32,000 nucleotides of DNA from Candidatus Hermodarchaeota archaeon (GCA_048886185.1 JBHLKY010000016.1:60001-92000); one strand, 5' to 3'; shown: positions 1-22,279, counted from the first letter of the stretch. Numbers and translations: made by a program. Notes: generated from the letters alone by a model not told the origin.

Positions 1-2145
1 TATTGTCTTTCTTTCATCCCCCGATCGCCATAAGTAATATTTCAAAATTCGACTTCTGTTAAATAGTTGGTTTTTATTACGCTCAAGGTAACTCATGATC
101 TTCTTGTTTGTGCTGATTTCATCGTTTCGATAGTTAGGAGCAAAAAGAACCTCTCTTTCCGTTCTCCAAAGTGAGAATTGCGTAATGTCTTTTCCTTTGA
201 TCCAAGGTTTGACATGGGATTTGTTAATCTTTAAGACTCTGGAAAAATAGAATGGGTCTTTCGGTGCAAAAATATGATCACAACCAGTTTCAATTCCCTT
301 GCTAATATTAGCTACGTCTTTAAGTGTCAGATTAGAATTTTCTCTAATTCTATAAAGGATATTAAGCTTAAGCCAATCAAGCAAAATCCATTTTTCTGGC
401 TTTAGATTAAATTGATAGACTCTACAGGGTTTTCTTAAAACTTGAGAGCCATTTTTTTGGTACTTGTTATAGATAAAACTTTGATCAGCGGGAGTATGAG
501 ACTTCTTCAAATGTATAATGATACTCTTAATATTTATATTCTGAAATAGTGTAAAATCTGTCAAGTCATGTATTTCTAGAATGCTTGCTGATTTAGAAAT
601 ACATTTTCTGATTTTCCTTGCATATAGACTGTGTAATATATATTTTGGGAGAATGAAAGATAGAATTCCGTTGTTGGTATTTAAAGCTGACAATGCTCTC
701 GTAATAAAAAAATAAGATAGATCATTATTCCCAGTATATATTTCTGGATATACTTTTTGTAACATTTTTCGTACAATCATCGGCATATCCGTTAATGCTA
801 CAAATGGGGGATTGCCAATGATTAAATCAAACTTCGGGAAGTTAAAATCTGCCCAATGGAATTTTAATATTAAATTCCTTTTGCTTTCTAGATGATAAGC
901 CAATGATTTATCTACAGATAGATCTATTGGGGATGAGAAAACAGCATAGAGTTTAAAATCAGATATTTGAGAACTTGAAATTGAGTATCGGATTTTCTTT
1001 AAAATTTTACTGTCAAGACTTTCCTTTTCACGATTCCAGACTGCCCTATCCCCTTCTAAAATGAAATATTGAAATCCTGGATACTTCAATAAGCTAGCAC
1101 AAGTATTGAAAAGCTGATTAATCTTTTGGTTCGTGGTCGAAGGAATCATGATTTCATATATATTGAATTGTTCGAAAAAATAATGATCATAATAAAGGTC
1201 TAGTAACGTTTTTCTCTTCTTTAACTCCATTTCGACAATTTTATTTTCACTGTATTCTAATGGTAATTTTTGAAAGCCAAAAAGGGCGTCTCCACTGTAA
1301 AGATTACATTTAAAACTGATTGGATCAGTTAAATTGAAACTCTTCTGATTATAAATCCACAACCAAAATTTCATTTGTGAAATTCTGATAGCTATCGGAT
1401 CTATATCTATTCCATAGAGGTTTCTTTTCAATATCAGAGATTTTATTTTCTCTATGGATAGAGTTGGGTTTAGAATCCTTAAAATCCGTATTAACAGATT
1501 TGCAGCTGCAAATAGAAACACACCAGTACCTAATGCAGGGTCACAAATTTTGATCGATTCCACTTTCCCCAGAATAATGTGTTTTGTTTTGAGATCTAAT
1601 TCATCTATCTGGCGTAGATCAGAAAAGGTATTACTAAATTCATGGAAATTGTTTCTTAACCAGTAAATAAAGCTTTCTTCTGCTATATAGGCTGCAAACT
1701 GATAAGGAGTATAAACATTTCCAGCAATTTTTTTTGAAGTGGAAAAATATTTTCTTAATTGAGTTACAAGAGTATCAAAGATTTCTAGGGTAATTAGACT
1801 TTCAGAATTGGTTTTACAATCAGAATAATCTCTAATCCATATAAATTTTTGTGAAAGATTATCAGCAATGGGCCCCCAGTCAATTGAATTTATCTTATTA
1901 TTCTGAAACTTTTTTTTGGCCTTTTTTCTAATAGGAAAAAGGATTTCTAGAGTTACTAAACTTGAAATGTTTTCTATTAAAAGAAATATATCTTTTGGGT
2001 TGCCATGATAGTTATATACTTCTATCCAATTTTTGAAGCGTTTTCCTGAAGACGAGGGAATGTTTTCTGGATTTAAAAAGAGTAGACAAGTGAATTTCAG
2101 CACTATGTTTAAGCTCTCTTCCTCACTTAATTTCAATGAGTTCAA
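1..2145 (-). CDS. Gamma-class N6-adenine DNA methyltransferase with TaqI/Eco57I-type target recognition domain; C-terminus runs off the window, start uncertain
   Basis: Hand translation: the minus frame is open from 2247 to base 1, and is absent from the ORF track because there is no stop in the window. Motif X GNVYTP, motif I ICDPALGTGVF (Asp codon 1542), YGIDID, GDALFG (1290), motif IV DLIIGNPPFV (Asn codon 813), TRD-type KGIETGCD. No in-frame ATG near the 5' end; TTG at 2145/2136 or GTG at 2103 are candidates. Confidence 0.88.
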   Translation of the reverse strand, partial: MNSLKLSEEESLNIVLKFTCLLFLNPENIPSSSGKRFKNWIEVYNYHGNPKDIFLLIENISSLVTLEILFPIRKKAKKKFQNNKINSIDWGPIADNLSQKFIWIRDYSDCKTNSESLITLEIFDTLVTQLRKYFSTSKKIAGNVYTPYQFAAYIAEESFIYWLRNNFHEFSNTFSDLRQIDELDLKTKHIILGKVESIKICDPALGTGVFLFAAANLLIRILRILNPTLSIEKIKSLILKRNLYGIDIDPIAIRISQMKFWLWIYNQKSFNLTDPISFKCNLYSGDALFGFQKLPLEYSENKIVEMELKKRKTLLDLYYDHYFFEQFNIYEIMIPSTTNQKINQLFNTCASLLKYPGFQYFILEGDRAVWNREKESLDSKILKKIRYSISSSQISDFKLYAVFSSPIDLSVDKSLAYHLESKRNLILKFHWADFNFPKFDLIIGNPPFVALTDMPMIVRKMLQKVYPEIYTGNNDLSYFFITRALSALNTNNGILSFILPKYILHSLYARKIRKCISKSASILEIHDLTDFTLFQNINIKSIIIHLKKSHTPADQSFIYNKYQKNGSQVLRKPCRVYQFNLKPEKWILLDWLKLNILYRIRENSNLTLKDVANISKGIETGCDHIFAPKDPFYFSRVLKINKSHVKPWIKGKDITQFSLWRTEREVLFAPNYRNDEISTNKKIMSYLERNKNQLFNRSRILKYYLWRSGDERKTI

Positions 2146-2297
2146 TTGAGTATAAATGTTTAGAAGAGTATTGATGACATTCTTTGAGCTAGGCCTTCTT
2201 TTCGCAGATTGAGTTAGTTGATGATGAATATTTCTTTTCCTCCATCTTTAAACGATAGATGGGTAAGTATTTTAAAATTGGATGAGACTGTTTGGAA

Positions 2298-2696
2298 TTA
2301 ATTTGAGGAATCCTCTGCTTCACTGGAATCCTTTTCACGGGTTTCGCTTATTTTCTTCTTGATCTTATCCATTCCCTTATATATCCATTTACGGGGCTTA
2401 CTTGGCTCTTCCTCTTGAACAATAATGTCACCTTGCTCAATGAGAGTAATGAAGACTGTAGTAATGTTTTCTGAAACCCAGTTATCGAGTTCCTTTTTGG
2501 AAACAGACGGAAAGGCCGAATTTGACTGTAAAGCTTGTTCGAACACCATTTGATGTATTTTACGATGTTGTTGCTCCTTTAAATCATACCACAGGTTACG
2601 AATTAGCTTTCTTTCCTTGGTTCGTAAAGCTTCAATCTCGAGAAGAATTTCCCACACTTTTGAGGAAACAACAACAGGTTTTATTTTTTTGGGCAT
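2298..2696 (-). CDS. Hypothetical 132-aa protein, helical with charged C-terminal tail
   Basis: ATG-started ORF with protein-like composition, co-oriented and closely spaced with its neighbours; no family motif recognised. Confidence 0.7.
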   Translation of the reverse strand: MPKKIKPVVVSSKVWEILLEIEALRTKERKLIRNLWYDLKEQQHRKIHQMVFEQALQSNSAFPSVSKKELDNWVSENITTVFITLIEQGDIIVQEEEPSKPRKWIYKGMDKIKKKISETREKDSSEAEDSSN

Positions 2697-2740
2697 TAAT
2701 CGACCTCTGTGTTAATTGTAGCAGGATTTGACAATAAGTT

Positions 2741-3007
2741 TCAGTACATGTAATCTTTCTTGCTTTTATGGAAAATAAATCGATGGATTATTACAAGCCA
2801 AACAAAACAAAGGATACCCATTCCAATGAGAAGTATTGAGATCAAATTTTTAATCCAAGTTGCGTCTTCATAACCAGGAGGCGCTCTTGCTAATTGATCA
2901 GGGATAAGGGTAGGAATAAAGAGGCCAGCAAGTATTAGAATAAGAGCTGCTAGTCCTCCAATTATTTCTGTTCTAAATCTTTCTAATTGTCGTCCCCAGA
3001 AGGACAT
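2741..3007 (-). CDS. Small membrane protein with two predicted TM helices
   Basis: Hydrophobic stretches IIGGLAALILILAGLFIPTLI and LISILLIGMGILCFVWLVII, followed by a basic C-terminus. Confidence 0.75.
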   Translation of the reverse strand: MSFWGRQLERFRTEIIGGLAALILILAGLFIPTLIPDQLARAPPGYEDATWIKNLISILLIGMGILCFVWLVIIHRFIFHKSKKDYMY

Positions 3008-3188
3008 TTTGCCAAAAACTCCTTATTTTGTTTATTCTCTTTCTTTTTGTTCATAATTGTGTCGTTAGTTTAAGTGTCAAAGTAATAAGAAAAAGTTTTC
3101 CTTTATTGATTCTTTCTCAAATATTGAAAACTTAATGAGTTCCTTCATACCTATTTGATTAATATGTCCTTTATTATGAATCGTTAAA

Positions 3189-5675
3189 CTACTTCATCAT
3201 CTTTTTAAGGATAGCAATTTCGATTAAAAGACCCTGATAGATTTTTCCAAGTAACGATTCAAACTCATGAGAGTTTTCAAAATTAAGACTCTTTAAAATC
3301 AACAAATCAAGGATCTTTCGTGGTTTAAATTGAACTCCGACAATATTTTCAAAGTTAGGGAATTGATTTCTTAATAAATTGAAATCTTGATTATTAATCT
3401 CTGAAACAGGAACATTCATGGCTAGTTGTTGCCATATTGGAGGAAATTCCTTATCTTTGAGCTTTTCAAACAAATCGTAATATGGAAGTCTCTGTTCATC
3501 CGTCCATGAGCAAATATCAGGGAATTCTATGTCTTTAACGACGTACTCATGTAGTTGCATCCATGCACCACGAGTTTCTACTCTATTGAGGAAAATTTGA
3601 AGTAAATTTATCGTGCTATTGAAAAACAAACACAAGACCTTTGCATCCTCCATTGAAATACTTGGGAAACTCCACATTACTCCTGGTGGCGCTCTTTTTT
3701 GTTTACTAAAGAAAGAAAAGAGAAAAGTCCCTGAAGCGCTAATATCAAAGCGCCTAGCAATCATTAGATGAGTAAGTCTCTCTTCCACGTACGTTCTCCA
3801 ATCTTTGAGATTAATTGAAGAGATAGCGTTACTCCCCTTTTCTTCAGATCCAATAAACTCCTTAAATTGAGAGAATGAAGATGTAACTACAAACTCTCTT
3901 TTATTGCTAATGTCTAGTCTTTTCTCACCAGTTACTCGACGTAAATGCAGATGAACACACATTTTTGGTATTTTTATCTTTACTCTGGAATGACGATTGA
4001 CTGCATTGACATGAAATTGAGTTTCATCATCAGAAATCCAAATATCTCTTGGCTGTAGGTAATTGGATCCAAAGTCATTTAATACCATGTTTTGAATCTT
4101 GAAACCTCTTGAAGTCTCAATCCCACGTTTGCATTCAATCCCTTTTGATCTTAGAAACACGTCAAATTTAATCAATGCATGATGTTTTGTAATAACTTTC
4201 CATTTCTCATTTAGATCAAACTTACTCATTGTAGCTATAGGTAGAAAAAGATTATTAGAAGAGACTTTATCGGAGGAAACTTTTCTTTCTTCCCATAAAT
4301 CGGGTATTTTTCCTTGATTCAGAATGTTTTCAGGAAATTCTTTACTCTCAAGATCCTGAATGATGATATAAGTGATTTTTTTTGTGGATGCTTTTTTCTT
4401 GGCGATTAACACTACTTCTCGAAATGCAGTATTTTCAGAAAAATTTGGTTTATCTCGTTGACAAATGATATATTGAATTTGATAATGCTTCATTAACCAT
4501 TTTCTTATTTTGAGCGTTGTATCAATTCTTAAAAAGCTTGCAGGAATAATTACAGCTAGTTTTCCTCCTGGCTTTAGAAATCTATCAGCAAGAAAAATGA
4601 AATAACAATGATAACCCATTTTTTTATCAAAATGAGGTGAATATTCACTAAAAGCCTTCTCTAATTCATCCTTATAAGACATCCTAATTTTATTTAATGT
4701 TTCCTGTCGAACAAACGGTGGATTCATGATCACAAGATCAACAAAATCAAGAGTTATTTGTTTTGGGATATTTATTACAATTTCATCATTTATTATATGT
4801 GATAACAGTGTAACTTTAGTATTTGGGGTAACAAAAGTGGAATCACATACTGCTAATCTATTCTGATTAATATTCCAAAATGGCGACTGGAGACTAAGAT
4901 GGATTGCGGAAAGGTGGACTGCAAAAGGCATCACATCAAGACCTGTGATGTCAGAAGAGAGAAATCGTCGATGATCCTCAATCGAAAAGGTTCCTTTCTG
5001 GAATTTCAAAAGTTCTTTTTTACGCCTGTAGGCTGAAACTAATAGTGCTCCACTCCCACATGCTGGATCAAGAACTTTTACCGAGGGAATTGAAATAGCG
5101 AAATGACTCAAGAGTCTTGCAGTCTTAATCCCTGAATAATATGCCCCAATTTGTTTCCTTAGTGACAATGGGATTAAATTATTGAAAATGAGAGCTATTA
5201 TCTCATATTGAAGTAATTCTGGCTTCATATTAATAATTACTTTAATTGAATCCTTTATATGCTTGAAGGTGCTGTCATCTAAATCTTTAATAATGTTTAT
5301 ACTAAAAATAGGATCATATTTAAGTCTTAAAGCCTTCTTAAGAAACCTAGCTAAGTCATTTGGAGTGTTAAATGAGTTTAGATGAACTTTAGGGAGATCA
5401 CAACGTTTTTCACTCAATATTCGATAAACTATCATTTGAGCGAGTAATAAATATGCTGCACTAATCGTTATAGCTTTTTTTTGCTCTTTTTCTGTTTCAA
5501 GATGAAATCCAAACATATTAATAAACAAATTACTATTACCAAGGCGTGAAGAGAATTTGGAGGATAAATCATCAAGGATTCTTCGGAAAATCACTGTTAG
5601 TTCATATGGATCACTCATGGTAGTTCTTTGGGTATGGTTCACCTTGTCAAATCCTTTATAGTCATGCATGGCCAC
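3189..5675 (-). CDS. Gamma-class N6-adenine DNA methyltransferase (type IIG/Eco57I-like MTase-TRD, no evident nuclease domain)
   Basis: RKQIGAYYS (motif X), VLDPACGSGALL (motif I), ITGLDV, DLVIMNPPFV (motif IV), LKPGGKLAVIIP, RGIET and CLFFNS TRD segments. The listed start is GTG; an in-frame ATG lies just downstream. Confidence 0.9.
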   Translation of the reverse strand: MAMHDYKGFDKVNHTQRTTMSDPYELTVIFRRILDDLSSKFSSRLGNSNLFINMFGFHLETEKEQKKAITISAAYLLLAQMIVYRILSEKRCDLPKVHLNSFNTPNDLARFLKKALRLKYDPIFSINIIKDLDDSTFKHIKDSIKVIINMKPELLQYEIIALIFNNLIPLSLRKQIGAYYSGIKTARLLSHFAISIPSVKVLDPACGSGALLVSAYRRKKELLKFQKGTFSIEDHRRFLSSDITGLDVMPFAVHLSAIHLSLQSPFWNINQNRLAVCDSTFVTPNTKVTLLSHIINDEIVINIPKQITLDFVDLVIMNPPFVRQETLNKIRMSYKDELEKAFSEYSPHFDKKMGYHCYFIFLADRFLKPGGKLAVIIPASFLRIDTTLKIRKWLMKHYQIQYIICQRDKPNFSENTAFREVVLIAKKKASTKKITYIIIQDLESKEFPENILNQGKIPDLWEERKVSSDKVSSNNLFLPIATMSKFDLNEKWKVITKHHALIKFDVFLRSKGIECKRGIETSRGFKIQNMVLNDFGSNYLQPRDIWISDDETQFHVNAVNRHSRVKIKIPKMCVHLHLRRVTGEKRLDISNKREFVVTSSFSQFKEFIGSEEKGSNAISSINLKDWRTYVEERLTHLMIARRFDISASGTFLFSFFSKQKRAPPGVMWSFPSISMEDAKVLCLFFNSTINLLQIFLNRVETRGAWMQLHEYVVKDIEFPDICSWTDEQRLPYYDLFEKLKDKEFPPIWQQLAMNVPVSEINNQDFNLLRNQFPNFENIVGVQFKPRKILDLLILKSLNFENSHEFESLLGKIYQGLLIEIAILKKMMK

Positions 5676-5993: not shown

Positions 5994-8900
5994 ATGTCGA
6001 AACAAGGTCAAATGAAGTCCTTTAATCCTGGTTATCGGTCATGGTTTACACCCTTTCGGTACAATCAGAGGGGACAAATTCCTATTTTCATATTAGACTA
6101 TGAAACTCATAGTGAATGGGAGGATACATATGAAGAATACCCTCAATACGAAAATAGGGAATATGGAAAATCAACATTAATAAATGGAATCCAGATTTAT
6201 TTTTTAGATGAAGAGTATCAGAAACATAAGGCATTTTTAAGACATGCGCCTTATTACTATTTATTACTTGAGAAAAATTTGCCACTACAAGAGATAAACA
6301 GAATAATAAACCAAATTAGGGAAGTTGGAGAGAAACAGGTAGTTAAAGTGGAGAAAGGAGAGTATTTTGACGCAGCTGATCTTACTTTTTTGGTAAAGCA
6401 ATCATTTCTAAAAGTAACAGCTGATCGTCCAGGATCAGTGCCAAATTTAAGGGCAAAGACCGAAGAAATATCTGGTGTGGAGGAATGGCGAGAAGCCGAT
6501 GTGCTGTTTCACCATCGTTGTGCAATAGATCATAATGTTCGTGTTGGAACATGGTACTTAGCTGAAATTAACCAAGGGGAAATTAGAAGTCTTTCTCCAA
6601 TTCCTGATAAAACACCACCCCACTTACGTCTCTTAGCTTTTGATATAGAGACAGATTTTGAGCGTACACGTGATCCCAATCCCAATAAAGACGAAATATC
6701 GATGATTTCAATCTTTACTGGTAGTGAAAACAGATTAATCATTAATTCAAAAGTCGTTAATACAAAAGACATTAAGAGTTTCGATATACTCCTGCGTCAA
6801 ATGGATGATGATCATCCGAAACCATGGGTCGATTGGGAATACTCTGAAACACCAAAGGTTAGTTCAGATGTCATCGAGAGATACTCTATACAAGTAATTA
6901 TCGTAAAATCAGAAAAAGAGTTAATTCAATTATTCTATCAATACGTGGATGAATATCGGCCTGATGTGATTACAGATTTCTTTGGAGGGCGATTTGATAT
7001 TCCCTTTCTTGCTATTCGTTCAGAAAAGCACAATATTTCATTTGAAAGGGAGACTGGTTTTGAGATCAAATTTAAAATCCAAAGAAGAAATCTAAGTAGA
7101 AAAGACCTCAATAAATATTATTCTTCAGCCCACATTGATCACGTGGCAGGTGCGGGAATCATCCACCTAGACGCATATCTGTTTAATGAAAAGTACAGTT
7201 ACCTTCCTAAAAAAGATCTGGGACTCAAACCAAGTGTTAAAAAGAAACTGAAAATTATTCCAATTGGGAGAGAAGCGCTATTTAACATCAAAAATGATCC
7301 TGTCTCAGCAGCTGCGTATGCTGGTTGTGATGGCTACATCACCTGGAAATATGTACGGGAACTTGTGCTAGATTTTTTCATTTCAATGGGTCAAATATTT
7401 CCAGTACCAGCTTCAGAATTGCTTACAAGGCGCGCAGGATCATTGGATGACCTCTTAATTGATGCGGAAGATTACCAACATCAAATAATTGGAAAAAGAC
7501 GTATTGGAAAAACTGATTTTCATTCTTTCTCCCCAAACATTATAATCGAGTCTTTGGCTTATACAGGAGGATTGGTTGAGGCTAAAAGACCAGGAATATG
7601 GCGAAGTGATCTTTATTATGATTACTCAGTTAATAAAGAAGCATTACTAGAGCTTAAAGAAATCATTCAAAATATAATTGTAAAAGAAAGCAATTTATTG
7701 GCTAAGAAAGTAATTAAAGAAGAATTTGAACAACAACTACTAGCAAAACTTGGGGAAGTGAAAGTAGAGTACATTGAAGATCCAATACAATACTTGAAAC
7801 AAATAGAGACTGTACTCTTAAAAAATGGTATTCCACCTCAAGAGCGCTCAAAAAAACTTAATTCAATCAGAAACGTTTTAGAAAAGATATCTACTCTTCA
7901 ACCTGAAAACGTAGAGGAAGTTACAACAAAAGTTTTGACTCAGATTGATGAATTAACTTCTTTAAATGGAAAAACTCAGCTTAGAGGTGTTCATGTTGAT
8001 GTAACTTCTATGTATCCTTCCCAAATCCGTCAATATAAACTTCAACCTTCAAGTATCGTTTCACTAACTAGATGTCAAGTATGTCAACTATATGAAAAAG
8101 ATAATAGTTGTTTCTTTGAAGGCGATTGGGTAATTAAGTTTACTGCAAATCGTCCTTGCAGGTTTAAAGATACAGGGCCTTCTAAATGTTCCTCTACAGT
8201 TTGTTCAGCTAAAAATGAAGCCCAATGTAAGAGATATGACCCTACTCAAAATGGTATCACTCGTTCGCAAGAAATTTTTGCTTTCGATGGAAAAAAGACA
8301 GAGGCATTTATTCTTAAAAATGGATTAGGGATTGAAAAAGTTCCTGTAAATCAAACATATCTAGGCTCAAGTTTATCTGGAAAGGATCCCTTTGTTGCAC
8401 TTCAACAGTGGCTTCGTAACTCAATTGAAGCAACCCAGCTTACAACACGCCTAGGTGAGAACCACTTCGATATTTTTGAGGATACACCAGAAGTAAATCT
8501 CCCACGTAATTCCTTTCTTAGTTTGGATGTTAGAACAAAGAAAATGACCATTTTGTTGTCAGTTAATTCACGAGTCTGTCAAAAAGCCTATAATTTTGTA
8601 GCTCGGATAATGGATGATTTTTTTGCAACGAGAGTTCGTCATAAAATAGAAGCTAAGCGGTTATCACAGATAATTTCTCAAAGGAGAATTCAGAAAAAAG
8701 AGATTCCTGCTAAGTTACAACGCCAACAAAAATTCCACGACAGTACACAGATTGGGATGAAGGTTCCACTAAACAGTATTTATGGTTTACTTGGGATGAA
8801 AGGTGGTGTTAGAAATGCTAGTATGCCTTGTGCTGGAATCACTACAAAATTATCTGCTGATTTGATATTTTGGGCTGCAAACCAGCTGGAGCAAATAGGT

Positions 8901-10355
8901 TTAGTAGTAGAGTTAGATACTGACGGTATATGGCTTTGGGTTCCTAAATCATTTCCCTTGGACTTTTCTGTTACACTTAATAGTCCCTATAAAGAATCCA
9001 AAACATATAAAGTGAGTCTTATAGATAAGGTTCTTAATGAGAAAGTTGCTTCTTTTTCAAGGAACGACAACTATTGGATAAATGATGGAGAAAGAATTAG
9101 ACATACAAGTAAGAATCTTATTCAATTCGAACAAGATGGACCATACGACTTCCAGTTTGTAATGGGTAAAAAGAAATATATTGTATATAATTTTAATCAT
9201 AAAACCCAGACATGGATAGAGAAAGAATTAACAGGATTAGAATCTAAGCGCGCTGACTTCTCTAAACTACAAAAATATTTCCAAGAAAGGATTATCAATG
9301 CTTATTTAGCCCAATATAATCCTGATAATCCTATTACGCTTTCCCAGATTTACGAAAACGCAAAAAAAGAAGCTAATCAGATTCGTTCCGAACTAGTAGA
9401 CAGGAAAATGGATCCAAGCTATTTTGTAAAACCAAAAGCGATCAACAAGCCATTACGGGCATATAAATCCAATCTTCCACAAGTATCGGCCGCTTACATC
9501 TTAAAAGATCTCGGTTATTCTGTAGATCCAGGTACACGGATACAGATGTTAAATATAAAGGGAAATCATGTCATCCCTAAACAAGTTTTTGATTTTGATT
9601 TTAACACAATAAAAAAGGTTTTGATAAAACACGCGATCGCTACTCTTAGCTTTATGCTAGGGGAGCTCAGTACAAAAGAAGATTTACAAAAATTGATTGA
9701 TGTTAATCAATATATTGAAGATGTGTTTGGTCCTGGACGAATTTACGAACGGATGGTTGAGTTTCCCATGGAAGCTCAACAATTACCTAGTCAAGTACAA
9801 AGAGAGCTGGATCTAATCGATATTCCAACTTCTCAAGTAGAGGAAACACCTATCCATGACCAAAAACCTAGGTTAAAGAAAGAAAAGGTAAAGAAATCTG
9901 TGGCGAAGACAAAAAAACCAATTAAGGTTAAGAAATCTCCAAAAATAAAGAAGAGAAAACCAAAAGGTTTAACCAGTCTATTTCAACAAGAGACATCCAC
10001 AGATGCATTAGTATCATCAAAATCGTTGAATGAATACAAGGAAGTAAGAGAAAAGGAGATATCAAAATCTATAAGTGAGCTAATTGCTGAACCCACACCT
10101 AGTTCCTTAATGACAGGGATAGTCTCCAAACCTGAAGAATTAAGTGAAGAACATCCTCTTGTTTCATCAGAAGAGATCGAGGAATTAGAAACAAATGGAA
10201 TTTTCGTGCATGGGGAAGAAAGTAATGACCAATATGAATTAGATATACCAAACGAAGAACAAATGGTCTGTTCTGAATGTGGGGCATTAATAAATTCTCT
10301 AGAAATTATGAATGAGGGATGTACATTCTGTGGAAGTGGGCGACCCCTTAGATAA
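5994..10355 (+). CDS. polB: Family B DNA polymerase, DNA polymerase epsilon catalytic-subunit-like
   Basis: Exo I FDIET (D217/E219), Exo II GRFDIPFL, Exo III YAGCD, Pol A HVDVTSMYPS (D669), Pol B KVPLNSIYG, Pol C ELDTDGIW (D975/D977). Pol epsilon-specific segments: EADVLFHHRCAIDHNVRVGTWY, GGLVEAKRPGIWRSD, CysX, FEQDGPY, ELTGLESKR. C-terminal C4 zinc finger. Confidence 0.93.
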   Translation: MSKQGQMKSFNPGYRSWFTPFRYNQRGQIPIFILDYETHSEWEDTYEEYPQYENREYGKSTLINGIQIYFLDEEYQKHKAFLRHAPYYYLLLEKNLPLQEINRIINQIREVGEKQVVKVEKGEYFDAADLTFLVKQSFLKVTADRPGSVPNLRAKTEEISGVEEWREADVLFHHRCAIDHNVRVGTWYLAEINQGEIRSLSPIPDKTPPHLRLLAFDIETDFERTRDPNPNKDEISMISIFTGSENRLIINSKVVNTKDIKSFDILLRQMDDDHPKPWVDWEYSETPKVSSDVIERYSIQVIIVKSEKELIQLFYQYVDEYRPDVITDFFGGRFDIPFLAIRSEKHNISFERETGFEIKFKIQRRNLSRKDLNKYYSSAHIDHVAGAGIIHLDAYLFNEKYSYLPKKDLGLKPSVKKKLKIIPIGREALFNIKNDPVSAAAYAGCDGYITWKYVRELVLDFFISMGQIFPVPASELLTRRAGSLDDLLIDAEDYQHQIIGKRRIGKTDFHSFSPNIIIESLAYTGGLVEAKRPGIWRSDLYYDYSVNKEALLELKEIIQNIIVKESNLLAKKVIKEEFEQQLLAKLGEVKVEYIEDPIQYLKQIETVLLKNGIPPQERSKKLNSIRNVLEKISTLQPENVEEVTTKVLTQIDELTSLNGKTQLRGVHVDVTSMYPSQIRQYKLQPSSIVSLTRCQVCQLYEKDNSCFFEGDWVIKFTANRPCRFKDTGPSKCSSTVCSAKNEAQCKRYDPTQNGITRSQEIFAFDGKKTEAFILKNGLGIEKVPVNQTYLGSSLSGKDPFVALQQWLRNSIEATQLTTRLGENHFDIFEDTPEVNLPRNSFLSLDVRTKKMTILLSVNSRVCQKAYNFVARIMDDFFATRVRHKIEAKRLSQIISQRRIQKKEIPAKLQRQQKFHDSTQIGMKVPLNSIYGLLGMKGGVRNASMPCAGITTKLSADLIFWAANQLEQIGLVVELDTDGIWLWVPKSFPLDFSVTLNSPYKESKTYKVSLIDKVLNEKVASFSRNDNYWINDGERIRHTSKNLIQFEQDGPYDFQFVMGKKKYIVYNFNHKTQTWIEKELTGLESKRADFSKLQKYFQERIINAYLAQYNPDNPITLSQIYENAKKEANQIRSELVDRKMDPSYFVKPKAINKPLRAYKSNLPQVSAAYILKDLGYSVDPGTRIQMLNIKGNHVIPKQVFDFDFNTIKKVLIKHAIATLSFMLGELSTKEDLQKLIDVNQYIEDVFGPGRIYERMVEFPMEAQQLPSQVQRELDLIDIPTSQVEETPIHDQKPRLKKEKVKKSVAKTKKPIKVKKSPKIKKRKPKGLTSLFQQETSTDALVSSKSLNEYKEVREKEISKSISELIAEPTPSSLMTGIVSKPEELSEEHPLVSSEEIEELETNGIFVHGEESNDQYELDIPNEEQMVCSECGALINSLEIMNEGCTFCGSGRPLR

Positions 10356-10725: not shown

Positions 10726-11664
10726 ATGCAGACAATTGAATTTGGAAAAACAAATCTAAAGATATCTCGAATAGGCTTAGGAACGCTTGCTTTTGGTCAT
10801 CCAACAAAAGGAATTCAAGATAAGAAAGAAATCTACGATTGTCTTAATTTCGCACTTGATAATGATATTAATTTAATTGATACTGCAGAGGAATATTCCC
10901 GTGGTTTGACAGAGAATTTTATTGGTGACGTGATAAAAAAACGAGGAGATCGTGAAGATCTAGTATTGGTTACGAAAGTTTCATACAATCACTTAAGTTA
11001 TCAAGACGTCATAAAAGCAGCAAATCAAAGCTTAGAGAGATTACAAACAGACTATATAGATTTATATTTAATTCATTGGCCCAATTGTTACTTTCCTATT
11101 TCTGAAACAATAAAAGCAATGGATTATCTATTAACTGAGGGGAAAATAAGATCTGTAGGTGTGTCAAATTATCCAAATGCATTAGTGCAAGAAGCTATGG
11201 ATAATTTACAGAATGGAGAGATAATAGTGAATGAACTAGAATACAATCTAATTAATCGAAATATTGAGAAAGAAATTCTACCATTTCTAAGACAACAAGA
11301 AATTACTGTACTGGCATATTATCCGTTATTGAGTGGTTTCCTAACAACTAACTATGATGAAAATACAATCTTTCTAGAAAATGATTTTCGAAATCATTGG
11401 GAATTATTTAAACATAAAGAGAATTTCATTAGATCACAAAACCTCTTTGAAACAATAAGACAAATTGCTATAAAGAATGATGTTAGTCCTGCTGAAGTAG
11501 CTATTAATTGGCTATTAAAAGATAAAGACATAATACCAATCCCCGGAGTAAAGAAAAAAAGTCAAATAGAGAACAACATTCATGCTACACAATGGAATTT
11601 AACAAGGGATGAAATATCTCGATTAACAACTATTACCAATAATCTTGAATTGAATATGTGGTAA
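10726..11664 (+). CDS. Aldo/keto reductase
   Basis: ISRIGLGT, IDTAEEY (Asp/Tyr), LVTKV (Lys), DLYLIHWP (His), GVSNY, IPIPG: the AKR catalytic tetrad and NADP-binding motifs. Confidence 0.93.
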   Translation: MQTIEFGKTNLKISRIGLGTLAFGHPTKGIQDKKEIYDCLNFALDNDINLIDTAEEYSRGLTENFIGDVIKKRGDREDLVLVTKVSYNHLSYQDVIKAANQSLERLQTDYIDLYLIHWPNCYFPISETIKAMDYLLTEGKIRSVGVSNYPNALVQEAMDNLQNGEIIVNELEYNLINRNIEKEILPFLRQQEITVLAYYPLLSGFLTTNYDENTIFLENDFRNHWELFKHKENFIRSQNLFETIRQIAIKNDVSPAEVAINWLLKDKDIIPIPGVKKKSQIENNIHATQWNLTRDEISRLTTITNNLELNMW

Positions 11665-11831
11665 AAATTAGGAATATTCTATAACAGATGCGCAATAACC
11701 AACGTTATAGACAATTTTTTATATAAATTTGTATATAATATTACAGTTATCTGTTCACACTCATCTTTATTCCTCCAATACACACCAAACTGATTTATCA
11801 GCTTATTCTCCTCTCTTAAAGAGAAAAAAAC

Positions 11832-12929
11832 TCATTTTAAATTTACTCTATTTTTGAGTCGTTCAAGAGTCGCAAGTTGCTGCTTAAGTTTTTCACCATA
11901 TTCTTTGAATTGAGGAATATCTGACTCTTTTACAATTTTAGTTTCGAGAAAACGAGTGATATTTAAAAGAATTTCTTCAAAAATCCACTGAGTCTTAATT
12001 AATCGTGATAAAAGGGTAAAATTAGCGTTTTTATTCTGTTGTTTTGCCATTACTGAAACTATCTCTGATTTGATTGATTGAATATTTCCCAATCCTTTTT
12101 CAAATTGAGGATGAAAAACTTCTTTTAGTTCTAAAATAGACCATGGATTTTTACGCCAATAATAACACCTATACGGTTCAGGATGGGTATATCCTAATTT
12201 TTGCGCTAGCTTCACAGATAATGGATTTGCTGCATCCCAATGTGGTTCAATCCCTTTTATTAAACAATATTCAATCATCTTGGCACTTACTAATGTTGCA
12301 AAACCTCTTCCACGGTAATCTGGATGAGTTGCAATATACAATTCAAGACTCTGAGTAATTGGGACAGATGCCAAAAACCCCATCACAATGCACAAAATTG
12401 TTTCATTTTTCTGAATACAGAACCCTACACCTTCTTCGATAAATTTCTCGGGACTTCCAAAATAATTTTTCATTTCTACCAAATAAGTTGAAAAATTTTG
12501 ACTTGGGATTTGTTTTACTGCTTCTATATCAATCTTCTTCAGCTGAAATCCCTTAGGTAATGGACTGAATATCCCACGAATATTCTGTAGTGATAAACTC
12601 TTAGGAGAAAGTTCAGTACGTGGAATATATCCAAAATATGTCCATTGAGGTTTAAGACTTGATTCCCATTCTTGTGAGGGTACGTAGATATATGTTTTTT
12701 CTGGAATTTTCACTAAAAACTCTTTTAAATCCTCAGCTTTGTTATTTCCTGCTAAGAAACAAGGCCCTTGTTGACACAGAAACATTACTACCTCTGGATT
12801 TGTCAGATTATTCACAAAACCTCTCACATTGGACCACACTAAATTTTGGGCTAGTATGTTCCTAATTTTATGTCTTTCAAAATAAGGCCAAAAATCTATT
12901 AATTGGTTCTGTGGTATTTGTTGGATCAC
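11832..12929 (-). CDS. GNAT-family N-acetyltransferase with C-terminal helical extension
   Basis: Acetyl-CoA motif IATHPDYRGRGFAT, then WDAANPLSVKLAQKLGY. Confidence 0.88.
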   Translation of the reverse strand: MIQQIPQNQLIDFWPYFERHKIRNILAQNLVWSNVRGFVNNLTNPEVVMFLCQQGPCFLAGNNKAEDLKEFLVKIPEKTYIYVPSQEWESSLKPQWTYFGYIPRTELSPKSLSLQNIRGIFSPLPKGFQLKKIDIEAVKQIPSQNFSTYLVEMKNYFGSPEKFIEEGVGFCIQKNETILCIVMGFLASVPITQSLELYIATHPDYRGRGFATLVSAKMIEYCLIKGIEPHWDAANPLSVKLAQKLGYTHPEPYRCYYWRKNPWSILELKEVFHPQFEKGLGNIQSIKSEIVSVMAKQQNKNANFTLLSRLIKTQWIFEEILLNITRFLETKIVKESDIPQFKEYGEKLKQQLATLERLKNRVNLK

Positions 12930-13183
12930 TTCTGACCGCTCATTCTTGCTTTTAGCTACTAGAATAGAGAACGATGATTCTAGCTGGGGGAAAATATCTG
13001 ATGTATTGAAGTCTTTAAGAACTCCTGAAGAGGTAAGTAAGATGCAAAAGTCGATACTACTCCCCCAACTATACTACATATTCAACCAGTATTCGCTGTG
13101 ATAATGTTCATCTCATATCAAGGTCGTTCATTCAGTTGTAGATCCTATCACATCTAGTATTTATAATAGTAAGCATATAATTT

Positions 13184-13343
13184 TTATTTGCTAAAACCCT
13201 TCAATTTCTTGCTATTTCTAGGAATAGGATCACCTTGAAGGCCTTCTATACTTTCCAAAATACTATTTATCAAAGCTTTTTCGAGTTTCTTCAAATCTTT
13301 ATGAGCTGATCATTTGTATACTAGATTGAAGTAAATTAAACAT
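13184..13343 (-). pseudogene. relE: RelE/ParE-family toxin remnant (N-terminal half)
   Basis: Hand translation YFNLVYK*SAHKDLKKLEKALINSILESIEGLQGDPIPRNSKKLKGFSK* matches the RelE pattern (A-x-KDLKKL ... I..L..DP.P..SKKLKG). Internal TGA at 13310-13312, premature TAA at 13184-13186, and the nearest ATG (13343) is out of frame. Confidence 0.62.
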
Positions 13344-13639
13344 TTTATTGCTTGTTCATAGATTAGTAGATTATACCCTAGTGAGAGAATACCAACATAT
13401 ACTGAGATTTTTCCACTTATCGCTTGTTTTATTACATTTTTTATAGCGTTTTATATAAAAAACTAGTCTTATCCAACGCTATGTTCGCAATTTATACAAA
13501 ACCAGTTGGTCATTCAACATAAGGAAAAATCTATAGCATAAGAAACATTATAAAGCTGAGTTTTTTCTAGAAATTTAATCAAAGACATTGAAAACGATAA
13601 ATTTCATTATCAAACTGCTGCTAATGCGAACACCATCAG

Positions 13640-14692
13640 ATGAAAACGAAGAACTTGAGAAAGGATTCCAGTATGGAAAAAGAAGAAAAAAAGGGCTCAT
13701 CTAAACGATCACCTATATTAGTATTGATCATGGGAGTAATTTTCGCGTATAGAGGACTTGTGATCTTCCCTCTTTATCATGTTCATCTGTTGGTAACTAT
13801 TTTTGACATTTGTGCGCTAATCCTTACAGGGATATTCCTCGCTATCTTAACGATTCGTAAGTACTCAAAGATAATCATCTTATTTTTAGGACTGGTTTGG
13901 TTTCTCCCCCTCTTCCCTTGGGTGTGGTATTTAATTTCCATTTGGTATTTTTTTCAAATGCTCAGGTTTTTTGGAGTCGAACTGCTTTTTCCTTTGATTG
14001 TCTTCACTAGTCTAATAGTATCGTTGATCCTTTGGAAACTGATGAAAAATATGTTCAAAACACATTATTACTCTGTCTATTTAAAAAGATTTAAACTTCA
14101 ACCAGAAACCTTAGTTGCTCTCGTTATTGTCACATTAATCGTTTTGGCAACACCTCTCCCGAGATTATCTTATAATTCGATTAGTTACAATTATGAGGGG
14201 GATCAAGAGGTTATCAATAATTACCTTCAACTTGAGATCAACCAGTACTTTCCTGAATTAGAAGCGTTTCTCAGTGACACTTGTACAGGATGGGCGTCAT
14301 TTGATTTGGTTCCTAACTACATTGGGGCAACAGAAAGAAATATATATACTAATTCCATCCTTTCTTCAAAATATAAGGCGAAATTCTGGATGAAAATAAG
14401 TGCAACAACGAATGACACTTTGCTAGGTCAGGAGATTATTCAAGAAGCTGATAACCGCGAATATAGATTTGGATTTTGGAATAATTCCTTTCAAGACCTT
14501 TATTTGAATGATATGACGTTTTTCAGCAATTTGTCACAGGTGGGAGGACCTATTTACGTTATCAGAGAATTCATTCGGTGGGATAACATGGTTGGGACAG
14601 ATATGCGATTTCAACAGTTTGTGGCTTTCTTTCCCGTTAATAATTCAATTATTACTATACTCTCTGGATATGAGATAGGGTGTTATGATTAA
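13640..14692 (+). CDS. Hypothetical membrane protein: about 5 N-terminal TM helices plus a C-terminal soluble (probably extracellular) domain
   Basis: Successive hydrophobic stretches in the first 175 aa, then a polar, Asn/Thr-rich domain with NxS/T sequons. Confidence 0.8.
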   Translation: MKTKNLRKDSSMEKEEKKGSSKRSPILVLIMGVIFAYRGLVIFPLYHVHLLVTIFDICALILTGIFLAILTIRKYSKIIILFLGLVWFLPLFPWVWYLISIWYFFQMLRFFGVELLFPLIVFTSLIVSLILWKLMKNMFKTHYYSVYLKRFKLQPETLVALVIVTLIVLATPLPRLSYNSISYNYEGDQEVINNYLQLEINQYFPELEAFLSDTCTGWASFDLVPNYIGATERNIYTNSILSSKYKAKFWMKISATTNDTLLGQEIIQEADNREYRFGFWNNSFQDLYLNDMTFFSNLSQVGGPIYVIREFIRWDNMVGTDMRFQQFVAFFPVNNSIITILSGYEIGCYD

Positions 14693-15877: not shown

Positions 15878-18127
15878 TTGACTGAACAGTTTCCACTCTC
15901 TAAATATCGGTCTTTAGAAGGATTTGCCTTAGACCAGACTGAACAATTTTTCAAACCAAGAACCTTTCTTGACTTAGTATTTCTTCTGTTGCTAATTTTT
16001 TGGTGGATGTCAGCATTTTTATTTCCTCAAACTGTCCTTTTTCGTGTAACAATATTCACTAGTCTTATTGCTCTTTTCTTCTTTACACCTTTATACATGA
16101 TATTCTTTAATGATGATGAGAAATCTGCAGCTTCCCCTTTGAATCGTGCTGGTAAAATCTTTATCTTCTATATCCTTATTCTTATTTCTACTCCTAATAG
16201 TTCAATCCCTGACATTCTTGGATCTAATTTACCTATCTCGTATGGTGAGCTAGAGCGTACTCTTGTTTGCATTCTCATTCCGTTTACAATACTTCTGAAC
16301 AGTTTTTCCCTGAAAACTCTTCACATTGGATATTTATTCTACATTCAAAGTATTCTTCAAGGTTTTTGGAGAGCAAGTCTGATTTTTTATTTTTTTAAAG
16401 GGATTCGTTTGTATCATCCTCTTACCATTATTAGTATTGACTTTGATTTGCTGTTAGTAGTAACATATTTCATGTTTCTATTAGGGAGTTTACTTCCAGT
16501 TGCTCCTAAACAAGTTACTTTATCTGCAACTGACCTATTCAATCAATATCAGGCCTTAAGAACTCCTGTGGAAAGAATTCGTGATGGATTACTTGCTGGA
16601 GGCTGCATTTTATTTATTATCCTGTTTTTGCAGTGGGTTACTTTAGCTTATGTTGAATTGTTTCAATATACTGCATTTTTAAGCCTCCTGATCGGTTTTA
16701 TCTTAATTTTTACGCCAAAAAAGCAAAATAAAATTCGATTTGGCTCACTTATGAGTGCTATTTCTGGTCAAGCTCAAGTTATCGATCCTACAAGTCAGCT
16801 AGGTAATCGTATTCAGAATTTTGCGCAGACTATTCAAGAAACGGAATTCAAGACACCAGAACAAGTTTATACCATTCCTTCTGATCAAATGAAGCTTGTT
16901 AGCAAAGGTAAGACCTCATTAACTGCAAAAAAAGGGACTATTGCAGTACCAAACGTTACTGAGAAAGGAACCGCTTTAGTTCTTATGGGTAAATCAGAGA
17001 TGGAGACAGAAACTGAAGAACAAGTAGTATCAAAAGAAGAAATTGAGGGGACAACCACCATTTGGTTAAGACCTGAAGAATGGGATAAAATCAAACTCCA
17101 ATTAGAGACCAAAGATTTGAGTGAATTAACAAAGAATGAGTTAACAAATGCAGGTATTGATGCAGTTACAGAGATTTTCGAGAAGACCAAGAAAGCTTTA
17201 ACTGATTTAAAGAATTGGCGAGGGCCTGAAGGTCTTTTCTCATCAGTTCTTGATGCTGCACCTTCTAAATACTCTATTACTGAAACTGCGGATTATTCTT
17301 TAGTCCGGTTACCAGGTATTTATGTTTTTGAATCTAGTATGCTGGAAATGGTCAACATTTTTGGGGGCTTTGTCAAGGTGATTGAAATAAAAGGAGTGGG
17401 GCAATATGTTCAAGTCTTCGGAGGTTTTGTGACTGTTTTAGAAACTCCTGATTACTCTTTTGTACAAACTCCTTTTGTTTCAGTCATTGAGACACCCCAT
17501 GGAGAAAGAGTCCGAGTTTTCGGCATAGACATACAGGAGGGTGATCCTATTAATTTAGAAGAAATCCGCTCTAAAATCATTCAGGATAAACAGAGTTTTG
17601 ATCAGTTATTTACTAGGAGAGTAGAAACACTTTTTCGTGAAGATCCTCAATTATTGCTAACCGATTCAAAAGGGAGAAAGATGGGTTTCATTGTGGGTGA
17701 GGAAGAGGTGATGACTGACGTTCCTAGAGATGTGAAAGGTCTGAAGGCGATAAAGGATATTAAAGGATTACATAGACATGAACCCAAGCATAAACGTCCA
17801 CCCTCACCCCCCTCACCACCTCCTTCTCCCCAACCTAAAAGGAAAAAGATCATGGGTTTAGAAATAGGGAGAGAAACATCCTCTGATGCTGTTACATTGG
17901 ATCTTAACCATGAGGGTGTTCCAGAAGATCATCCTCAGTTACTAGAAATAGATGAAGCATTAGCTCGAATTGAAGAATCGATTGCTGCAACTGATGATAG
18001 ACTCATTAATAATGAAATTTCTGAGACTAAGCATACAGAGCTAATCAATCGTTTAAAACAACGCAGAGAGAAATTACAGAGAGAGAAAAGTGATCTTCAT
18101 AATCAATTAAAACCAAAGTTAGTGTAA
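15878..18127 (+). CDS. Polytopic membrane protein (about 8 TM) with large soluble region: beta-hairpin repeats, polyproline tract, C-terminal SHOCT-like/coiled-coil
   Basis: About 8 hydrophobic segments in aa 30-280; repeats of V-x-V-x-E(T/S)...V-x-x-(F/P)-G; PPSPPSPPPSPQP; terminal helical hairpin DDRLINNEISETKHTELINRLKQRREKL. Confidence 0.82.
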   Translation: MTEQFPLSKYRSLEGFALDQTEQFFKPRTFLDLVFLLLLIFWWMSAFLFPQTVLFRVTIFTSLIALFFFTPLYMIFFNDDEKSAASPLNRAGKIFIFYILILISTPNSSIPDILGSNLPISYGELERTLVCILIPFTILLNSFSLKTLHIGYLFYIQSILQGFWRASLIFYFFKGIRLYHPLTIISIDFDLLLVVTYFMFLLGSLLPVAPKQVTLSATDLFNQYQALRTPVERIRDGLLAGGCILFIILFLQWVTLAYVELFQYTAFLSLLIGFILIFTPKKQNKIRFGSLMSAISGQAQVIDPTSQLGNRIQNFAQTIQETEFKTPEQVYTIPSDQMKLVSKGKTSLTAKKGTIAVPNVTEKGTALVLMGKSEMETETEEQVVSKEEIEGTTTIWLRPEEWDKIKLQLETKDLSELTKNELTNAGIDAVTEIFEKTKKALTDLKNWRGPEGLFSSVLDAAPSKYSITETADYSLVRLPGIYVFESSMLEMVNIFGGFVKVIEIKGVGQYVQVFGGFVTVLETPDYSFVQTPFVSVIETPHGERVRVFGIDIQEGDPINLEEIRSKIIQDKQSFDQLFTRRVETLFREDPQLLLTDSKGRKMGFIVGEEEVMTDVPRDVKGLKAIKDIKGLHRHEPKHKRPPSPPSPPPSPQPKRKKIMGLEIGRETSSDAVTLDLNHEGVPEDHPQLLEIDEALARIEESIAATDDRLINNEISETKHTELINRLKQRREKLQREKSDLHNQLKPKLV
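17270..17542 (+). repeat. Protein-level tandem repeat, 5-6 units of about 16-19 aa
   Basis: YSITETADYSLVRLPG / IYVFESSMLEMVNIFGG / FVKVIEIKGVGQYVQVFGG / FVTVLETPDYSFVQTP / FVSVIETPHGERVRVFG / IDIQEG. Confidence 0.7.
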
Positions 18128-18167
18128 ATGATCCATAAGTATGAATTAAGGATTTTCCTTGGTTGTT

Positions 18168-20084: not shown

Positions 20085-20120
20085 TGGTTCTGTAATATCT
20101 AGTAGATTAGACGTTTATTA

Positions 20121-21887: not shown

Positions 21888-21895
21888 GTTAATGG

Positions 21896-22279
21896 TTATT
21901 TTATTATCTTATATTTCGATGTTATTGTTAAAACTTCAGATACGCGAGGATTGTAGTCTTCTAAGGGATTTCGGTCGTCATATTTAATAGATTGAAAAGT
22001 CCTAGAAAAAATTACCCATGATACTCGCTTATTTTGGCTTTTAGAAAAGCGAGACAATCTTTGGAATGCATCTTCACCTTTAATACCAAAATATTGGTTG
22101 CAAAGAATATTTATCTCGTTGAGAACCTCTGGAACGCGGCTTCTAGAGTAAAGGCCTAATTTTTCCAGAAGATTTGCCTCTTTAGGGTTTATTTTCTTCT
22201 CTTTCAGTAATTGATAAATAAATGATGGATCTTGTAAAGTTTGGTTTGCTTCTGCGAATGAAATATTTATGAAAGGCAC
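21896..22279 (-). CDS. Hypothetical 127-aa protein, first gene of a putative 3-gene operon
   Basis: GTG-started ORF ending 8 nt before the next co-oriented gene; no motif recognised. Confidence 0.68.
   Translation of the reverse strand: MPFINISFAEANQTLQDPSFIYQLLKEKKINPKEANLLEKLGLYSRSRVPEVLNEINILCNQYFGIKGEDAFQRLSRFSKSQNKRVSWVIFSRTFQSIKYDDRNPLEDYNPRVSEVLTITSKYKIIK

Follow-up and report, generated by a model that had tools for sequence, protein, structure and literature searches.

How did the catalytic subunit of DNA polymerase epsilon (Pol epsilon), the eukaryotic leading-strand replicase, come to be built of two polymerase modules, one of them inactive? The origin of this two-module subunit is a central question for the origin of the eukaryotic replisome, and it is raised by a gene in a 32,000-nucleotide stretch of DNA from Candidatus Hermodarchaeota archaeon (GCA_048886185.1, JBHLKY010000016.1:60001-92000), which we call the window. 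Positions 5994..10355 (+) form one open reading frame (ORF; P0001) that runs from ATG to stop and encodes 1453 amino acids (aa). An earlier reading made from the sequence alone, referred to below as the sequence-only reading, had described its product as a Pol epsilon-like family-B polymerase (PolB) with an active core and no inactive second PolB module. Our answer, to which we would give a probability of roughly 0.85, is that the ORF encodes an epsilon-type PolB of Hodarchaeales belonging to archaeal group B10: a one-module, catalytically competent, proofreading enzyme whose core corresponds, on the archaeal side, to the active N-terminal half of Pol2/POLE and which is presumably a replicase.

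The family and its reading as a precursor of Pol epsilon were already published between 2020 and 2025, and the window provides one more orthologue, not a discovery. Kazlauskas et al. 2020 (PMC7544198) based group B10 on the Heimdallarchaeota LC3 and B3 and placed it as sister to PolEpsilonN. A glutamate in motif C was taken as a synapomorphy of PolEpsilonN, B10 and bacterial G3; B10's C-terminal domain (CTD) was found to have one metal-binding motif and not to cluster with eukaryotic CTDs; and PolEpsilonN was proposed to derive from a relative of B10-bearing archaea. Eme et al. 2023 (PMC10307638) recorded an 'epsilon DNA polymerase subunit' only in Hodarchaeales. A 2025 paper in Nat Ecol Evol (PMC12680538) described a Pol-epsilon1-NTD-containing 'PolB1' of Hodarchaeales, called it a Pol epsilon precursor older than the last eukaryotic common ancestor, and modelled Pol epsilon as a fusion of the Hodarchaeales PolB with PolB-DP2CTD. 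The idea put forward in the sequence-only reading, which itself mentioned reports of Pol epsilon-like PolBs in Heimdallarchaeia, appears almost verbatim in these three papers. What is added here is threefold. The CysX ligands, an extra cluster of four cysteines and a tail motif resembling a PCNA-interacting protein (PIP) box are conserved family-wide; synteny points to a long vertical residence in the order; and the catalytic loop of DNA polymerase D (PolD) is degenerate across the order, and only there among the families compared, which sharpens the claim of a working replicase.

The identity of the protein is carried by its core. In a BLASTP alignment with full-length yeast-family POLE, aa 56-1270 correspond to POLE 130-1203 with 23% identity (E 7e-61). 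A phmmer search against all chains of the PDB is led by the yeast and human Pol epsilon catalytic subunits (E 1e-56 to 1e-47), and classical archaeal PolB reaches only E 1e-15 in the same search. Homologue searches return about 60 Hodarchaeales or Heimdall proteins of 1430-1600 aa, that of Heimdall LC_3 among them, and then eukaryotic POLE. In the 1453-aa protein Pfam finds DNA_pol_B_exo1 (PF03104; aa 166-409, E 3.6e-25) and DNA_pol_B (PF00136; E 1e-12); the scan of the ORF gave nothing else of substance beyond these two. Conservation of residues was read in a MAFFT alignment of 45 full-length archaeal homologues and the N-terminal halves of 10 eukaryotic POLE. The features of the ORF and its core are as follows (AF2, AlphaFold2).

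5994..10355 (+), whole ORF: epsilon-type family-B DNA polymerase, archaeal group B10
6159..9803 (+), catalytic core, aa 56-1270, colinear with the Pol2/POLE core (BLASTP, AF2, Foldseek)
6489..7220 (+), 3'-5' exonuclease domain, aa 166-409 (Pfam PF03104)
6636-6656 (+), ExoI, AFDIETD, with D217 and E219
6978-7001 (+), ExoII, with D335
7317-7331 (+), ExoIII, YAGCD, just past the Pfam exonuclease range, with Y442 and D446
7635..7889 (+), helical insertion, aa ~548-632 (~85 aa), lying between exonuclease domain and palm, for the most part missing in eukaryotic POLE
7992..8024 (+), polymerase motif A, HVDVTSMYPSQ, with D669, M673 and Y674 (alignment)
8073..8579 (+), CysX cysteines C694, C697, C706 and C862, spanning the P-domain-equivalent insertion (alignment)
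8157..8228 (+), extra Cys4 cluster, C722, C732, C737 and C745, within the P-domain region, a feature of the archaeal family alone
8760..8786 (+), polymerase motif B, KVPLNSIYG (alignment)
8910..8933 (+), polymerase motif C, ELDTDGIW, with the epsilon-clade glutamate E973 (alignment)

The exonuclease residues D217, E219, D335, Y442 and D446 are invariant throughout the 45 archaeal homologues and the 10 POLE sequences. For the polymerase, D669 and the Met-Tyr pair (M673, Y674) of motif A, K923, N927, Y930 and G931 of motif B, and E973, D975 and D977 of motif C do not vary in any archaeal homologue (45/45), and the motif C glutamate E973 is invariant in the 10 eukaryotic sequences as well. Judged by these residues, the exonuclease and polymerase active sites are both intact, and the acidic residues that the sequence-only reading took to be preserved are indeed so in 45/45 archaeal homologues. 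The segments which it quoted as diagnostic of epsilon (DV..H.R..ID...V..WY, FDIET...MIS, GG.VE....G..RSD, ELDTDGIW..P.SFP and FE.DGPY) all align to yeast-type Pol epsilon.

The CysX motif, also named in the earlier reading, is as well preserved: its four cysteines are invariant in 55/55 aligned sequences (45 archaeal and 10 eukaryotic), in a region that aligns to the yeast C-x2-C-x8-C...VCQ block. These cysteines would serve as iron-sulphur (Fe-S) ligands of the Pol epsilon type. At the position of the Pol epsilon P-domain the palm carries an insertion, seen both in the BLASTP alignment and in the core model. Two further elements belong to the archaeal family. The extra Cys4 cluster is invariant in 45/45 archaeal homologues, whereas all 10/10 POLE have a gap there. 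It probably provides a second metal site beside CysX, and it lies where the confidence of the AF2 model is lowest (per-residue confidence, pLDDT, 53-73). The helical insertion appears in the model as long helices at model positions 489-573, equivalent to aa 548-632, and aa 557-600 stand opposite a gap in POLE in the BLASTP alignment.

The predicted structure tells the same story. An AF2 model of the core (aa 60-1259, from a 45-sequence alignment) has a pLDDT of 86.7 and a predicted TM score (pTM) of 0.82. When it is compared with the PDB by Foldseek, the 36 best matches are without exception catalytic cores of Pol epsilon (E 1e-58 to 1e-45, TM 0.64-0.76); Thermococcales PolB comes next (E 1e-32, query TM ~0.5). 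As modelled, the fold of the core is the Pol epsilon core fold. The Thermococcales enzymes (KOD, 9N, Pfu; PDB 4k8z) share with the window protein the general family-B fold of N-terminal, exonuclease, palm, fingers and thumb domains and a proofreading exonuclease, but they have ~775 aa, lack CysX and the P-domain, and match more weakly both in sequence (E 1e-15) and in structure.

A maximum-likelihood tree leads to the same place. It was made with IQ-TREE (LG+C20+F+G4 PMSF, quick search) from 47 rows and 1073 columns, the rows being 25 archaeal homologues, 13 POLE N-halves and 9 other PolBs (the genome's three other PolBs, four Asgard PolB1-type sequences and two weak non-family matches). Three splits each have an SH-aLRT of 100: the archaeal family is monophyletic, eukaryotic Pol epsilon-N is monophyletic, and both stand together against the 9 other PolBs. 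The Heimdall LC_3 polymerase (P0060; 37% identity, E 1e-246) falls within the archaeal clade, and the window protein groups apart from the three other PolBs of its own genome. The sequence-only reading had allowed that the protein might group with archaeal PolB1/B3; in this tree, which includes no Pol alpha, delta or zeta, it pairs with Pol epsilon-N.

If the core is that of Pol epsilon, is anything left of the second module? The features of the C-terminal tail are listed below.

9804..10352 (+), C-terminal tail, aa 1271-1453, mostly disordered (AF2, composition, no Pfam domain)
9858..9959 (+), Lys-rich tract, aa 1289-1322, 18 K/R in 34 residues (composition)
9960..9983 (+), PIP-like box, PKGLTSLF, aa 1323-1330, a putative PCNA-binding motif (alignment and short model helix)
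10164..10214 (+), conserved acidic helix and F-x-N/H-G motif, aa 1391-1407 (consensus S..E..ELE....F.NG in a 42-sequence tail alignment)
10269..10331 (+), terminal C4 zinc ribbon, C1426-x2-C1429-x13-C1443-x2-C1446 (alignment and model)

After the end of the POLE-core alignment 183 aa remain (about 200 had been estimated), made up of 15% Glu, 12% Lys and 11.5% Ser. An AF2 model of the tail (aa 1235-1453, 42-sequence alignment) has a mean pLDDT of 65.7 and a pTM of 0.27. Only the last helices of the thumb and the zinc ribbon are modelled with confidence; otherwise there is a 5-residue helix on the PIP-like box (aa 1326-1330) and a 9-residue acidic helix (aa 1392-1400), with a Glu/Ser-rich spacer between the box and the acidic helix. 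The idea that this tail is a degenerate PolB module is ruled out by its length, by the absence of any Pfam domain and by a model which is mostly disordered, so that the one-module architecture claimed from the sequence stands on three agreeing lines. Pfam annotates PF08490 and the other families of the eukaryotic second module in every POLE match and in neither the ORF nor its archaeal homologues. None of the archaeal homologues, up to 2543 aa in length, has a second PolB module; the only archaeal forms above 1600 aa carry intein domains (the forms of 1.9 thousand aa).

The tail is nevertheless not featureless. The single C4 zinc finger noted from the sequence is indeed terminal, and its four cysteines are present in 42/45 homologues and invariant in the 42-sequence tail alignment; the ribbon is modelled as a beta-hairpin with a pLDDT of 82-87. 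The alignment gives this single C4 motif only, not the paired CysA/CysB CTD with which Pol2/POLE binds its B-subunit (Dpb2/POLE2). In closer homologues a block x-Q-S/G-L-D/E-x-L/I-F after the basic run aligns with the PIP-like box, LC_3-type relatives have SKN[IL]SEFF elsewhere in the tail, and some POLE sequences have a canonical Q..[LI]..F[FL] about 20-40 aa past the core. C-termini of a PIP-like kind are also found on the other PolBs of the genome. Binding of PCNA through the PIP-like box is plausible but unproven. A complex prediction with the genome's PCNA and tail aa 1300-1345 (score 0.12, mark 0.32) weighs neither way on it. The genome has a single PCNA (P0222; contig 9, L008:1492-2349 (+)), about 33% identical to the PCNA of other Heimdallarchaeia families, with a C-terminal tail of ~30 aa that is almost entirely Asp, Glu and Trp.

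Set beside Pol2/POLE (PDB 4m8o, 6h1v, 9b8r, 9f6d), the window protein shares a colinear core of ~1200 aa with a fold TM of ~0.7, the residues of Exo I-III and of Pol A-C (among them the Met-Tyr pair in motif A and E-L-D-T-D-G-I-W), CysX, the insertion at the P-domain position and, with some POLE, a PIP-type motif soon after the thumb. It lacks the inactive PolB module of ~1000 aa, the DUF1744 region and the CysA/CysB CTD, whereas POLE largely lacks the extra Cys4 cluster and the ~85-aa helical insertion; the one C4 ribbon of the tail is unrelated. With group B10 it shares the motif C glutamate, the single C-terminal C4 motif, the position as sister of Pol epsilon-N and the restriction to Hodarchaeales. 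Within B10 the window copy belongs to the larger and more compact sub-clade (~1430-1500 aa), in which the PIP-like box has the form x-Q-S-L-D-x-I/L-F; the core of the LC_3 type is ~130 residues longer and its box reads S-K-N-I-S-E-F-F. Another Asgard PolB with a C-terminal metal-binding appendage has been proposed as a eukaryotic replicase precursor, namely the Baldrarchaeia PolB3-DP2CTD, which goes with the eukaryotic Pol delta/alpha type (PMC12680538). Its CTD is derived from DP2 and binds DP1, while the CTD of the window family is unrelated and the polymerase belongs to a different PolB clade.

What might such an enzyme do? An intact proofreading exonuclease, CysX and the P-domain are hallmarks of the processive, high-fidelity Pol epsilon of eukaryotes. 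If the likeness extends to function, the archaeal enzyme would work as a high-fidelity replicative polymerase, with the P-domain supplying intrinsic processivity. Its disordered tail might tether it to the replisome, the PIP-like box reaching PCNA and the acidic helix and C4 ribbon a further partner.

Among the new findings, the one that speaks most for a part in replication is the degeneration of the catalytic loop of DP2 of PolD. The genome's DP2 (P0223; contig 14, L039:309-3632 (+)) is full length, with 1107 aa, three Pfam domains and E 7e-161 to Pyrococcus abyssi DP2. Its loop reads N-C-N-G-D-I-D, against N-C-D956-G-D958-E-D in P. abyssi, where D956 and D958 are the invariant aspartates on which catalysis by PolD was shown to depend critically (PMC4996933). 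Within the order, every DP2 loop that was read (22/22) is degenerate: 15 have C-N-G-D-[IV]-D, one has C-S-G-N-I-D, and five have C-N-G-[AV]-[TSN]-D, in which both critical aspartates are lost. In a second family (f2), with two genomes, the loop is A-N-G-D-I-D in one and unrecognisable in the other. Sister families without an epsilon-like PolB keep D-G-D-E-D in all DP2 loops read (10 of f7 and 11 of f4). Kazlauskas et al. had noted the 'lack active DP2' state for LC3 and B3 only (PMC7544198), and it now extends to the whole sampled order. For the polymerase itself, a search with the core as query at E<=1e-20 gives one copy each in 22 of the 23 genomes that represent the order besides this one, and none in 60 genomes from five other families of the class.

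Because DP2 has lost an essential catalytic aspartate in this genome and in the order, bulk DNA synthesis most likely falls to PolBs, and the epsilon-like enzyme would be the prime candidate. The working replicase would accordingly, though only by inference, be a PolB like that of the window. In two genomes of the order, taken as examples, DP2, PCNA and the polymerase have 83/78/78% and 54/66/61% identity respectively, and since DP2 diverges about as fast as the other two, it appears to be kept under constraint, presumably for a non-catalytic role.

Two observations on PolD may be recorded beside this. Many DP2 of the sister families (L071-L075, L084-L089) have an intein directly after the N-C of the catalytic loop, which gives ORFs of 1.4-1.7 thousand aa. 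DP1 (541 aa; contig 3, L040:1338-2963 (-)) keeps phosphoesterase motifs I, II, IV and V when compared with P. abyssi DP1, and its motif III is G-E-H-D in place of G-N-H-D.

The alternative that survives best accepts the enzyme as active and denies that it is the main replicase. It would then serve in repair, gap-filling or extension after lesion bypass, and replication would be left to another PolB and/or to PolD. The genome does offer candidates, with three further PolBs (P0099, P0100 and P0101, on contigs 8, 2 and 5). P0099 is PolB1-like and P0100 a second active-looking PolB; both have intact YGDTDS, and both end in PIP-like sequences, P0099 in the canonical PIP box Q-V-N-L-M-E-F-F and P0100 less canonically in ...LTVFFK. 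P0101 is PolB2-like, and its motif C is degenerate, with I-V-D-S instead of D-T-D-S. With P0099 as query, the 120 matches listed are all Asgard PolBs, and its Asgard-wide orthologues are annotated 'DNA polymerase I'. DP1 and DP2, too, have both been retained. Set against this are the replicase hallmarks listed above, the near-universal presence of the epsilon-like gene as a single copy in the order, and a DP2 without the equivalent of D956, which is essential for catalysis. We regard a role outside the main replicase as possible, if on the unlikely side.

Several points nevertheless weigh against our preferred reading of a B10 replicase. P0099 or P0100 could share or carry the main replicase load. 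The change from D to N in DP2 might leave residual activity, and the coincidence of DP2 degeneration with the epsilon-like PolB is a single phylogenetic event in one order, not a set of independent replicates. The PIP-like box of the window protein does not have the Gln that is canonical at position 1. By yeast two-hybrid, no interaction was seen between the CTD of the family and hodarchaeal DP1 (PMC12680538). For the family, activity and processivity are predictions, as are the binding of Fe-S and of PCNA. Finally, our tree is without Pol alpha, delta and zeta, bacterial G3 and archaeal B8 and B9, and for these published trees were relied on.

Even if the enzyme is what we take it to be, its history could have been different from the one suggested by its architecture. 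The tree shows the sisterhood of the archaeal family and Pol epsilon-N and not a direction, because the outgroup branches are long, the archaeal and eukaryotic stems are equal (~2.0 substitutions per site) and clades were left out. The protein could descend from a captured N-terminal module, or it could be a copy that lost its C-terminal half. A different history is argued for by Forterre (PMC12395588), and Kazlauskas et al. likewise call the origin of B10 unclear (PMC7544198). It would fit the limitation of the family to one order (0/60 other Heimdallarchaeia genomes) and its great divergence from the genome's other PolBs, with a stem of ~2 substitutions per site. However, the eukaryotic sequences are monophyletic and neither group nests the other, hence there was no transfer from crown eukaryotes. 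The tail has no trace of a second module by Pfam or AF2, and the invariant insertions that mark the archaeal family (Cys4 cluster, helical insert) imply a long independent evolution. The gene has a chromosomal locus with synteny kept down to 37% identity and no flanking integrase or viral genes in the window. Such a history seems unlikely to us.

How, then, does the suggestion fare that this architecture resembles a pre-fusion ancestor of the leading-strand polymerase? The resemblance is supported by the tree and by the one-module architecture. The protein is not itself that ancestor, because it belongs to a sister lineage with derived insertions of its own. We infer that it represents a sister lineage of Pol epsilon-N which has kept the unfused architecture. 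To our knowledge, the Hodarchaeales family is the only cellular lineage with a free-standing enzyme of the Pol epsilon-N type, and it is therefore a natural experimental model for the pre-fusion state.

A more speculative suggestion can be made regarding the retained PolD, and we consider it very unlikely. The epsilon-like PolB may act as a Pol epsilon in trans: a dead but full-length PolD would serve as scaffold, and the polymerase would dock on PolD or on the Cdc45-MCM-GINS helicase (CMG) through its tail with the acidic helix and zinc ribbon and carry out synthesis. DP2 keeps its Zn-finger CTD and would pair with DP1 in such an arrangement. If correct, the dead PolD would be a functional analogue of Pol-epsilon-C plus Dpb2, and before active and dead modules were fused in eukaryotes, a non-covalent complex would already have divided the work between them in the same way.

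An artefact (contamination from a eukaryote, chimeric assembly, or a gene cut short or split from a second module elsewhere) was considered solely since the best non-archaeal matches are eukaryotic, no point in its support having been found, and it can be rejected with near certainty: GC content is uniform at 0.31-0.37 along the window, the flanks are archaeal-type genes on a contig of at least 92 kb, the identical full-length architecture recurs in ~45 independent assemblies, closed genomes among them, identity to POLE is just 23%, the ORF closes with the conserved zinc ribbon and a stop and is followed by the aldo/keto reductase gene, and no second PolB module was met in any archaeal homologue of up to 2543 aa.

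There remains the locus of the B10 gene. The window lies on contig 16 of a 4.84-Mb, 96%-complete assembly, and its DNA is represented in sediment and estuary metagenome DNA runs, four of which may be the source sample; there is no RNA run among those listed. The source names of the relatives are mostly Hodarchaeales or Heimdallarchaeota, and the nearest named ones are metagenome-assembled genomes. Upstream of the polymerase gene, in divergent orientation, are Eco57I-like methyltransferases; downstream follow an aldo/keto reductase and a GNAT protein, then a 749-aa protein, a TPR/SNAP-like operon, a NUDIX protein and HMG-CoA reductase. With such neighbours, a replication operon context was rejected. 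Relatives with 71% and 61% identity have the same flanks on both sides, minus the reductase/GNAT insertion, and in LC_3 the TPR/SNAP-like gene still adjoins the polymerase. This synteny indicates long vertical residence in the order and speaks against recent mobility. The gene has a stable place on the chromosome and is confined to a single archaeal order.

Some details of the neighbourhood deserve mention. Eco57I/MmeI-like N6-adenine methyltransferases are clustered at positions 1-5675 of the window, and no nuclease is visible among them. The same cluster is found upstream of the orthologue in the 71% and 61% identity relatives (L091:1-7608) and not in LC_3. The 749-aa protein and a convergent three-gene TPR/SNAP-like module (window 15878-22279; L091:12447-18849; L092:12731-18645) form a block that adjoins the polymerase gene across the order and is partly kept in LC_3 (37% identity). 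In the window, the aldo/keto reductase, the GNAT gene and a 350-aa ORF (10726-14692) are inserted between the polymerase and this block.

The polymerase copy in the window has no intein, in contrast to those of several close B10 relatives. The close orthologues P0003, P0006 and P0028 and those of genomes G052, G054, G059, G064 and G065 contain inteins, which bring them to ~1.9-2.0 thousand aa. These inteins sit at the equivalents of aa ~976, in the D-T-D of motif C, or of aa ~930, in motif B.

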